From NCBI GenBank assembly GCA_964447355.1, contig CAYUSG010000001.1:9217-73216 (forward strand): a stretch of 64,000 bases of DNA, read 5' to 3'. A program made the translations under genes and the position numbers. The notes under the pieces are model-generated. The model worked only from the letters and a program-made list of their open reading frames with translations, did no database searches and was not told the DNA's origin. This DNA comes from an uncultured Paenibacillaceae bacterium. GTDB lineage: Bacteria; Bacillota; Bacilli; Paenibacillales; CAYUSG01. Of the stretch, positions 16,061 through 19,102 are shown piece by piece. Positions within the stretch are counted from its first letter, which is position 1, and the number at the start of each line of letters is the position of its first letter.

Positions 16061-16402
16061 CTATCCGAGTTTGATCACCATTTGCTCTAACGTTCTTAAA
16101 CGCTGCCCCAGGGAACGAAGCAAACCAACACCTACCTCAGGATAAAGCCGAACCAATCGAGCCATTTCACTGCCTGCAATTTCCAGCACCTTGGCTTGAT
16201 CAAATAAAATTTGCGCTGAAACCAACGAAGGTTGATCGTCGAACAGCCTTCCCTCACCTATGGATTGTTTGGGGCCTATAATACCGATGGTGCCCTCTGT
16301 CCCATTATCATTAATACCGCTAATTTCAACGTGACCTTCAACAATGACGAATAACGAGGACGTTGGTTCACCTTGCTTGATGAGGAACGCTCCTTCTTCC
16401 AA
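16061..16402 (-). CDS. C-terminal part of a cyclic-nucleotide-binding-like domain; probably the detached 3' portion of the upstream gene
   Basis: The TTG-started ORF is in the same frame as 16442..19102. AFLIKQGEPTSSLFVIVEGHVEISG...IGEGRLFDDQPSLVSAQI is a cNMP-domain beta-barrel. The phosphate-binding R-[ST]-A is replaced by V-S-A. Confidence 0.6.
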   Translation of the reverse strand: MEEGAFLIKQGEPTSSLFVIVEGHVEISGINDNGTEGTIGIIGPKQSIGEGRLFDDQPSLVSAQILFDQAKVLEIAGSEMARLVRLYPEVGVGLLRSLGQRLRTLEQMVIKLG

Positions 16403-16441
16403 CTGTTTTTCGGCGGCAATGCTGGCCCCTTTCCCTAATTC

Positions 16442-19102
16442 TTAAATGGGTATGGCTTCAAATAATGGCACCTGCTTCAAAAACACAATTTTGTCTAATG
16501 CTTTTAAATAGTCCCAATTTTCAACCAACGCTGTCTCTCCCTCCATCACATCCGCCTTTACCGCGATCGCTTGAAGCCATGGATCTGTATTCCCAGCCTC
16601 AATCGCCGCGGCTGTTTCTTGCGCCTGAGAATTTTGATCTTGATCGTAGCTTCCTTTTACAGCAATGTGTCTATCTTGATAAAAATGTAACAGTGCGGCG
16701 GCTAATCTTGGATGCCCCAGGCCTTCTGATAAGATTTCGAGCCCATGATCCCTAACCTCCTCATCTGCACTTTCGATGGCCATACGAATGCGCGGGATGG
16801 CCCGTTCATCGCCGAACCGAACCATCACAGCCCAGATCGTATCCAGACGAGATTGCCTTAATTCCTCCATACGCATCCACGCCAGCTCAGCCCAGTCCGC
16901 GTGTCCTGACTGCTCGATGCAGGCAATCACATCCCGATTCGCTTGCAGCTCTGCTAATCTAGCAATACATGAAGGGACCAGCAGCTCCCGAATCTCCTTC
17001 TCTGAACCGATAGCATTCACAACGGTCACCGTTGTTCGCCAAATTTCCTCATTAGGCGATGTAATAAATCGTGACAGCTCTGGCAGCGCCTCATCACCAA
17101 TATCGATCATTGCCTGCTCGATGGCCATTCGCAGCTCTTTATCCGCGCCAATCAACATCTCGGTTAAACTCGTTGCCGCTTCCGAACCGCCAATTTTCCC
17201 CATCGTCCGAACTGCAGCATGCTTTACTGCCGGCAAAGGGGATAGCAGACACATCATCACATCGAACATATAGTCCTTCAGCTTCCGCATACCAATCACT
17301 TCACAAGCTAGTAATGCCGCATCACCACCTTCACCGAGCAATCGGCGAAGATCTGCTCCCAGCACGTCTGATTCGTCCATCACCTTCAGCGCTTCAACTT
17401 GCACCACTGGGCTTGTGTCCGAGCGAGCCGCCTCAATCCATTGTTCATGAAAGCTTAAGAGGCTTTCGATGGAGAAGAGCTGACGGTAAACAACAGCACG
17501 CACATGCTCGTCTTCATCCTTCATAAGCTGCTCCTGACGTTCCCTGCTCAGCAGTTCCCATCCGCTGGGGTGAATCGCTGAGAAGGCTAATTCACGTAAA
17601 TGAGGAGTACAGCGGTCAGCATACTGAAATAAACTGGATGAAACCGCAGGGTCTGGATTACTCACAAACAATTCCAGCGTTATGCGCTGTATCATGACAT
17701 CAGGATGATTAAGCTGTTCGATCAACGTGTGCCGAACGCGATCATGCTTCATCGATTCCATAAACTCACTTAACACATCCTGCGCTGTACTAGAGCTGAT
17801 TTTCAAATAACGTACAAGCTCTTTGATATACAAATGACGGCCCAGCCAAGCAATAACGAATAACGCCAAGGCCAAGCCTGTTCCAACAACAGCTTGCATG
17901 AATAAAGACCATTCCAGCTCAGAATGCAGCATCGATGCAGCCGAACCGAGCAAAATCCCCGCCGACGCAGCAATCCCTTGTGCAGTATAACGGAAGCCGT
18001 CGCGATGCTGCATCGGAAGCATTTTGAAATAAAATTGATAACTCGGTTCAGCAAAATAATAAAGCAGCAAATATAACAAGCTGTACCCGATTGAAGCCGC
18101 AATAAGCGCTATAGATTCATCTATGAAAAAACTGACAAAAGCAAAGCTGCCTAAGAAAATAGCAGAAATAGCAAAAATCGTGTTGCTCGCCCCCAGCCAT
18201 TCAATCAGTTTGGAAGCGAATAATTGCAGAAGCAATGCCCCGCAGAACAGAATAATGACCATTAATCCATAAAACGACGTCAATTCCGACTCATTCTTGA
18301 ATACAGCCTGGGCGGATGTGAAATATTGATATTCCATTAAGAAATAAATCGCAGGCATTAACGTCATAATCCCAATAACAGCTAGTAAGAAAGGGGATTT
18401 CACAATTTCTTTGAAATAATAAGTCGAAGACGCCCCTGCTTGCTCAGCCTCGTTCTGCCCCGAAATCGTAAGCGGAATTAAATACTGCTTCAACGCCTTT
18501 AAGAAATTAGGCAGTCCAAGACATAGAATAACAGCTCCCAGAATGTACAGCACATCCGGCCCCCACAGCGGTCCGAGTGTATTCGAGAGAACACCTGCCG
18601 CAATCCCGCCTATAATGGCTGAGATGACAAAGACTGGCATCAATCGTTTGGCTTGCTGTGTCGGACATAAATCAAAGACCGTGCTCCACATGAGAAGAGT
18701 CTGCTGTCTTACAACAAAATTAGAGGTTATGAATAACAAGATATAAAAAGACAGCCACTGCACACCCGTTGATTGAAAAATAAGTAATACAGCGCCATTT
18801 ATAAGTCCAATACCTACAAATAAAATATACATCGACGTCATAAACTTCGGTTTGGATATGCGCTGGGCATAAAATGAAAGCAGCCAGCCTTCTATTGGAA
18901 GCAACAGCGCCTCGAATAAATACATCAACGGTAAATATTGCGTGCCTACGCGGCTGTTGAAAATCGCCATGAACGATGTATAGTTCACCATTTCAGCAAT
19001 GCCGGCCAGAAAAAATACAGTTCCCATGATCCATACTTTTCGCCGATCCTCATATCGTATATGAAACATTGTTCGTAATCCTGATATCACATGAAGCTCC
19101 AC
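16442..19102 (-). CDS. Polytopic membrane (MFS/ADP-ATP-translocase-like) plus HEAT-repeat protein ending in the first strand of a cNMP-binding domain
   Basis: About 12 hydrophobic segments in the first 430 aa or so. These are followed by helical-repeat sequence (HPDVMIQRITLELFVSNPDPAV..., DEDEHVRAVVYRQL..., SPLPAVKHAAVRTMGKIGG...). It ends with LDKIVFLKQVPLFEAIPI and then TAA. The GTG start has no clear SD, so the start is uncertain. Confidence 0.65.
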   Translation of the reverse strand: MELHVISGLRTMFHIRYEDRRKVWIMGTVFFLAGIAEMVNYTSFMAIFNSRVGTQYLPLMYLFEALLLPIEGWLLSFYAQRISKPKFMTSMYILFVGIGLINGAVLLIFQSTGVQWLSFYILLFITSNFVVRQQTLLMWSTVFDLCPTQQAKRLMPVFVISAIIGGIAAGVLSNTLGPLWGPDVLYILGAVILCLGLPNFLKALKQYLIPLTISGQNEAEQAGASSTYYFKEIVKSPFLLAVIGIMTLMPAIYFLMEYQYFTSAQAVFKNESELTSFYGLMVIILFCGALLLQLFASKLIEWLGASNTIFAISAIFLGSFAFVSFFIDESIALIAASIGYSLLYLLLYYFAEPSYQFYFKMLPMQHRDGFRYTAQGIAASAGILLGSAASMLHSELEWSLFMQAVVGTGLALALFVIAWLGRHLYIKELVRYLKISSSTAQDVLSEFMESMKHDRVRHTLIEQLNHPDVMIQRITLELFVSNPDPAVSSSLFQYADRCTPHLRELAFSAIHPSGWELLSRERQEQLMKDEDEHVRAVVYRQLFSIESLLSFHEQWIEAARSDTSPVVQVEALKVMDESDVLGADLRRLLGEGGDAALLACEVIGMRKLKDYMFDVMMCLLSPLPAVKHAAVRTMGKIGGSEAATSLTEMLIGADKELRMAIEQAMIDIGDEALPELSRFITSPNEEIWRTTVTVVNAIGSEKEIRELLVPSCIARLAELQANRDVIACIEQSGHADWAELAWMRMEELRQSRLDTIWAVMVRFGDERAIPRIRMAIESADEEVRDHGLEILSEGLGHPRLAAALLHFYQDRHIAVKGSYDQDQNSQAQETAAAIEAGNTDPWLQAIAVKADVMEGETALVENWDYLKALDKIVFLKQVPLFEAIPI

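Follow-up and report, generated by a model that had tools for sequence, protein, structure and literature searches.

We analyzed a 64-kb stretch of DNA (hereafter, the window) from contig CAYUSG010000001.1 of an uncultured Paenibacillaceae bacterium (GenBank assembly GCA_964447355.1), in which a minus-strand gene for a protein with an MFS-like membrane domain, HEAT repeats, and a C-terminal cyclic-nucleotide-binding (CNB) domain is interrupted by a single in-frame TAA codon. Our analysis shows that the gene was ancestrally one open reading frame (ORF) of ~1010 codons and suggests that the stop is not programmed but probably arose by a very recent single-base nonsense mutation, which changed a GAA (Glu) codon to TAA. 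We assign this reading a probability of roughly 0.68. Such a change is an ordinary first step of pseudogenization or a strain-specific regulatory lesion. The main competing explanation is an error in the deposited consensus, which we consider distinctly less probable.

The interrupted gene and its uninterrupted orthologues

The minus-strand ORF at 16442..19102 comprises 886 aa when counted from its first possible start and ends with ...LKQVPLFEAIPI-TAA, the stop occupying positions 16442-16444. The likelier true start is GTG 19090, which gives a product of 882 aa. After the TAA, the same frame is open for 126 codons (16441-16064), up to a TAG at 16061-16063, and the listed ORF 16061..16402 lies in the same frame as the 886-aa ORF upstream of it. 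The frame check thus bears out the layout given in a preliminary description of this DNA, in which the 886-aa ORF ends in the TAA and the next ORF continues in its frame. The elements of the gene are as follows.

16445..19102, minus strand: truncated product, with an MFS-like polytopic membrane domain at about residues 1-440 (containing the CPTQQAKR motif), a HEAT-repeat region at about residues 450-860, and then the first ~12 residues of the CNB domain
16442..16444, minus strand: premature TAA stop, which replaces the Glu or Asp codon (GAN) of every orthologue; GAA is one G>T step away
16427..16429, minus strand: GGG (Gly) codon, five codons past the stop, in a column occupied by I/L/V/M in orthologues
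16400..16402, minus strand: TTG codon that opens the mechanically listed 113-aa ORF; it lacks a Shine-Dalgarno (SD) sequence and is not credible as an independent start
16064..16441, minus strand: orphaned CNB (PF00027) remainder, 126 codons that continue the frame of the 886-aa ORF, fully conserved, followed by the native TAG stop at 16061-16063

When the upstream 886 aa were compared with Pfam, HEAT_2 was recognized with 65.5 bits (cut-off 27.7), and MFS_1 gave a weak match below the cut-off (E 2.8e-4). Two motifs of the N-terminal polytopic membrane domain, CPTQQAKR and FLxSNFVVRQ, which served as the patterns for the genome scan described below, are both present in the window protein. The 126 aa after the stop match PF00027 (cNMP_binding) with 58.3 bits (cut-off 27.5; E 7.7e-16). 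On the read-through protein, the alignment to solved CNB domains, the best of which is 2pqq_A (E 6.7e-16, chain residues 7-137), begins at residue 875, and NCBIfam matches of the CRP/FtrB type begin at residues 873-880. Therefore, the stop (residue 887) lies ~12 residues inside the CNB domain. Its position is in the N-terminal helical part, where the ...EELG... helix ahead of the beta-barrel begins. Truncation at this point costs the protein its final 12.5%, which form a discrete regulatory domain. NCBIfam yielded domain-level matches only for the interrupted protein, and a literature search returned no characterized member of the MFS-like/HEAT/CNB family and no description of this architecture.

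With the read-through protein as a query, 204 relatives were found, and the best 120 of the 204 were listed. PF00027 is present in 119 of the 120 among the matches listed, the sole exception being the window’s own 882-aa product (P0001). The listed homologues, except for a few that contig ends cut short, are single polypeptides of ~960-1070 aa; they come from Ammoniphilus, Cohnella, and Paenibacillus, with the best match (66% identity) in Ammoniphilus. A genome scan that used one genome per species returned 80 loci. At every one of these loci the codon at the position of the stop is a sense codon (GAG in 35, GAT in 24, GAA in 12, and GAC in 9), and the gene is a single stop-free frame of 972-1228 codons (median 1024) that continues for exactly 126 or 127 residues past the position. 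In an alignment of 23 orthologues, the corresponding column contains Glu in 17 and Asp in 6 sequences. The CNB domain is therefore fused to the rest of the protein within one ORF at all 80 orthologous loci but is separated from it by the TAA in the window. Since GAN occupies the equivalent codon in 80/80 loci, the TAA is private to the window genome.

These results support the proposal that one nonsense codon separates a membrane/HEAT body from the C-terminal CNB domain of a ~1000-aa polypeptide. The continuity of the CNB domain upon read-through is confirmed both by the PF00027 match after the stop and by orthologue alignments that run straight across it. The preliminary description had suggested that orthologues be aligned to see whether they are single proteins of ~1000 aa with a sense codon at this site, which they are, the codon specifying Glu or Asp in all 80 loci. 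The opposite arrangement, with orthologues consistently encoded as two genes, was also looked for and was found in 0/80 loci and in 0/119 other listed proteins.

Glu codons in the interrupted gene are GAA in 41 cases and GAG in 34, and the neighbors of the window sequence use GAA or GAG at the site. Judging from these codons, the TAA most likely arose from GAA (Glu) by one coding-strand G>T transversion, for which a single step suffices. If so, translation of the MFS-like/HEAT/CNB gene would end at residue 886, and the product would keep its transmembrane and HEAT parts but lose the CNB sensor domain together with whatever ligand input it provides. The 126 downstream codons would probably not be translated to a useful extent, whereas the kinase/anti-sigma-like, STAS, and GAF-PP2C genes that follow would still be made from their own ribosome-binding sites. 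The allele would then have lost its function or be deregulated and sensor-blind; the truncated product may retain partial activity instead of being null. On sequence, the truncated protein may be in either a null or a locked state.

Age of the stop and the possibility of a consensus error

To judge from its divergence, the domain beyond the stop has not decayed. Its mean identity to the close clade is 0.653 (0.56-0.69 for peers), and it contains 8 private residues (0-27 for peers). When 68 orthologous ORFs were aligned, conserved columns violated after the stop amounted to 1/29 of identity-conserved and 1/57 of group-conserved columns; before the stop, the corresponding values were 4/165 and 9/317. 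By the number of post-stop violations, the window protein ranks 16-17 of 69, which is about the family average. A long-standing pseudogene was rejected, as the post-stop domain has diverged no more than in peers. The lack of decay implies that the stop is either evolutionarily very recent or not real.

The latter case, in which the genome itself reads GAA, the protein is made at full length, and the T was introduced by an error in the consensus of the deposited contig, is unlikely but deserves more weight than any of the other alternatives considered below. A perfectly preserved downstream domain is what one expects when there is no real lesion, and the stop is unique among 80 species. Two further observations weigh against a genuine mutation. 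The first is that a further radical substitution (I/V to Gly), likewise private, is found 15 nt past the TAA and could mark a poor local consensus or a low-quality stretch. The codon concerned is GGG at 16427-16429, one T>G step from GTG; of the 68 aligned orthologues, at least 90% have I/L/V/M in the corresponding column. No other group-conserved column is violated after the stop, and the chance of the sole violation falling so near the stop is about one in ten. The closeness of the two changes could be a coincidence, a small multi-nucleotide mutation, or the result of a locally poor consensus. The second is that the collections contain just one assembly of the organism: no second one turned up among genomes and metagenomes, and identity to the nearest relative is no higher than 66% at the protein level, a distance at which synonymous sites are expected to be saturated. 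When the 882-aa product and the sheath protein encoded nearby were looked up by exact match, neither led to a contig in the collections; a 32-nt DNA pattern in which the mutated base was set to N had no match in metagenome contigs, and the source genome has no counterpart among species-representative genomes. In the protein collection, the 882-aa and 113-aa products are each a singleton, both derived from a single 78,037-bp NCBI contig.

On the other side, the remaining ~50 genes of the window show no disruption and have full-length domain matches, which shifts the balance from a consensus error toward a true mutation, and the site lies outside any long homopolymer or repeat. Several genuine nonsense mutations are typical of a bacterial genome, and substitution errors that persist into a finished consensus are rare by comparison. 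Because the assembly appears clean and consensus substitution errors are generally rare, we favor a genuine nonsense mutation.

Neighboring ORFs that share a frame are common within the window. At 47738-47752, two giant surface-protein ORFs of 1756 aa (with Ig-like domains) and 2052 aa (with an SLH anchor at its end) lie in the same frame, separated by a TAA and 9 nt. A second nonsense split, at 47750-47752, was considered here and rejected: the downstream ORF has its own GAGGGG ribosome-binding site and a signal peptide, and the TAA marks a true gene boundary.

Possible read-through, restart, or switching at the stop

A stop followed by an intact domain in a continuous frame would also be produced by a functional split of the gene. 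Under this explanation, a free CNB protein or a low level of full-length protein would be made through programmed read-through of the TAA or through reinitiation, either at TTG 16402 or at the SD-preceded codons ATT 16420 or ATC 16381. Besides the continuity of the frame and the integrity of the downstream domain, it can draw on the fact that the 113-aa ORF was called by a gene caller and on the purine-rich GGGAAAGGGG, which can form an SD-like duplex of -11.8 kcal/mol before an in-frame ATT. However, this stretch is 4-5 nt ahead of the ATT, a sub-optimal spacing, and the SD-like stretches in the region precede only non-canonical ATT or ATC codons and merely encode conserved E-L-G-K/R residues. 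At TTG 16402, SD pairing amounts to -2.0 kcal/mol; across 24 gene starts of the window the median is -9.7 kcal/mol, and restart at the TTG was rejected for this reason.

Read-through fares no better. The stop is found in no orthologue, so no such mechanism is conserved, and its context is UAA-G, UAA being the least leaky bacterial stop. It is also the standard terminator here: TAA is the commonest stop of long ORFs in the window (14/28), for which reason codon reassignment was rejected as well. The 116 nt of RNA around and after the stop fold no better than shuffled sequences (z = +1.2; 179/200 shuffles fold at least as well), and read-through aided by RNA structure was rejected on this basis. 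A search for tRNA genes in the window found none, hence no local suppressor tRNA. Taken together, we regard a functional split as highly improbable.

Phase variation was rejected too. The change is a substitution, and the site has neither tandem nor direct repeats and no homopolymer tract or invertible segment, the only inverted matches there being two of 10 nt located >100 nt apart. Four explanations had initially been offered for the stop. Two of them, a recent inactivating mutation and a sequencing error, survive the analysis; a strain-specific on/off variant is disfavored by the absence of a repeat tract or invertible element, and deliberate read-through or restart at the TTG by the lack of conservation, the UAA-G context, the absence of downstream structure, and the missing SD sequence.

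The signaling module, the injection system, and known counterparts

The interrupted gene is the first of a conserved four-gene module and is followed by genes for HATPase_c_2, STAS, and GAF-SpoIIE proteins, beyond which lies a contractile injection system.

15596..16048, minus strand: HATPase_c_2 (RsbW/SpoIIAB-like) kinase/anti-sigma-type gene, with a strong SD sequence of its own (-13.9 kcal/mol)
15245..15586, minus strand: STAS gene of the anti-sigma-factor-antagonist type
13869..15227, minus strand: GAF + SpoIIE (PP2C) phosphatase gene, the last of the module
1..13614, minus strand: contractile injection system operon, apparently intact, directly downstream, and then an ORF that runs off the window

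Because the HATPase_c_2 gene has a strong SD sequence, its translation need not depend on the upstream stop. Of the 80 loci, 53-57 encode relatives of the three downstream module proteins; where coordinates were inspected, these follow the orthologue directly. No sigma factor was found among the window gene products scanned.

Genes of the injection system encode a WHD-AAA ATPase, a Pvc16 cap, a sheath, two gp19 tube proteins, a 992-aa protein, a CIS_tube-LysM protein, a GPD hub, a spike OB domain, and gp25. By Pfam, this is the gene set of an Afp/PVC-like extracellular contractile injection system (eCIS) in one operon. The locus runs off the start of the window, and its baseplate and fiber genes were not seen within the window. 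The four-gene module is located directly upstream of the injection system both in the window (1-16048, minus strand) and in 19 of the 80 species, those closest to it (loci L003-L019). A literature search that included eCIS papers found no link between a partner-switching/CNB module and an injection system.

The position of the module gives rise to one more explanation of the TAA, that of a selected, strain-specific allele without a sensor. Loss of the CNB domain would be adaptive by locking the membrane protein, and through it the partner-switching module and the injection-system operon, in one state. The module would in that case be an undescribed cassette, consisting of a membrane/HEAT/CNB-like protein and an RsbW/RsbV/RsbU-type switch, that controls the adjacent injection system in Ammoniphilus/Cohnella/Paenibacillus-type bacteria, and the strain would be a natural mutant that produces the injection system independently of its signal. 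Only the terminal regulatory domain is removed, the 886-aa body, the three signaling genes, and the injection-system operon being intact, and in well-studied CNB-regulated proteins deletion of the CNB domain often relieves autoinhibition. Yet the domain is dispensed with in 0/80 loci and in 0/119 other listed proteins; the fact that no relative lacks it argues that it is needed for function. There is also no reversible switching mechanism (repeat or invertible element) at the site. We consider a selected sensor-blind allele improbable.

The phosphate-binding cassette of the window CNB domain keeps its Gly-Glu, but the canonical Arg-Ser/Thr is replaced by Ser-Leu (PSLVSAQ, window 16145-16200), with PRTA of 2pqq_A aligning with PSLV. 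The residue after Pro is never Arg in 22 aligned orthologues (Ser in 21 of the 22 and Gly in P0055; consensus PSxVSAQ). In CRP and PKA, this Arg contacts the cyclic phosphate. Because it is absent from the window protein and the aligned orthologues, the ligand may be other than cAMP or cGMP, and the “cNMP-binding” label possibly does not describe the real ligand. A gene for a CHASE2 + nucleotide cyclase protein is present ~7 kb upstream of the Ammoniphilus resinae orthologue (L002/L003). A linked cyclase as a conserved source of ligand was rejected, since neither the window nor any of the other 79 loci has a CHASE2-cyclase gene.

Upstream of the interrupted gene, region 19135-24541 encodes a 443-aa protein and a divergent 938-aa protein, both without a Pfam match, and a 317-aa YbjN-domain protein. 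Relatives of these three are found in 11-13 of the 80 loci; in inspected loci (e.g., L004, L006, and L010) they are just upstream of the orthologue, beside the injection system. From this placement, cargo or accessory proteins are a possible assignment for them. Elsewhere, region 31998-40044 (minus strand) contains a gene for another 443-aa protein, with DUF3323 and DUF2399 and a weak JetD_C match, that adjoins ORFs of 1378, 398, and 501 aa; on a scan of the JetD-like protein only, the layout resembles the Wadjet (JetABCD) plasmid-defense operon. At 58301-63520 (minus strand), a 1060-aa hybrid sensor combines 7TMR-DISM, HisKA/HATPase_c, a receiver, and a second His_kinase/HATPase core and is followed by a REC-BTAD regulator. 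A gene for an Arr-type rifampin ADP-ribosyltransferase lies upstream of this sensor.

The stop codon itself is of little weight and serves chiefly to correct the annotation: the ORFs of 882 and 113 aa, which the protein collection lists as two proteins, should be merged and marked as a single interrupted gene. A real mutation would make this strain a ready-made mutant of natural origin, without the sensor domain of an uncharacterized signaling protein that heads a conserved four-gene module. The genomic context, with this module beside an injection system, is more interesting than the stop codon.

Compared with known systems, the window gene most closely resembles a nonsense-mutation pseudogene or truncated allele, with which it shares a single base substitution, intact coding downstream, and a stop in one genome only; nothing essential sets it apart. 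At programmed read-through or recoding sites, too, an in-frame stop is followed at once, in the same frame, by the coding sequence of a functional domain, but the window stop is present in 0/80 loci, is UAA rather than the leaky UGA or UAG, and lacks a stimulatory structure. The A. resinae “cyclic nucleotide-binding domain-containing protein” (P0002, 1009 aa) is 66% identical over its full length and has the same domain order, and its locus, as in the window, continues with HATPase_c_2, STAS, and GAF-SpoIIE genes and then Pvc16, sheath, and tube genes; it is uninterrupted, whereas the window copy is broken by the TAA, which replaces the first (Glu) codon of the ...EELG... helix in the CNB domain. 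The window domain resembles canonical CNB domains (CRP, the PKA regulatory subunit, and 2pqq_A) in its fold-level match and cassette Gly-Glu and differs from CRP and the PKA regulatory subunit in having Ser-Leu in place of their Arg-Thr/Ser pair. Finally, the HATPase_c_2 kinase, STAS antagonist, and GAF-PP2C phosphatase encoded after the interrupted gene correspond to partner-switching systems of the RsbU/RsbV/RsbW type, but the first gene of the window module encodes a large membrane/HEAT/CNB protein, and in the closest clade the module stands beside a contractile injection system.

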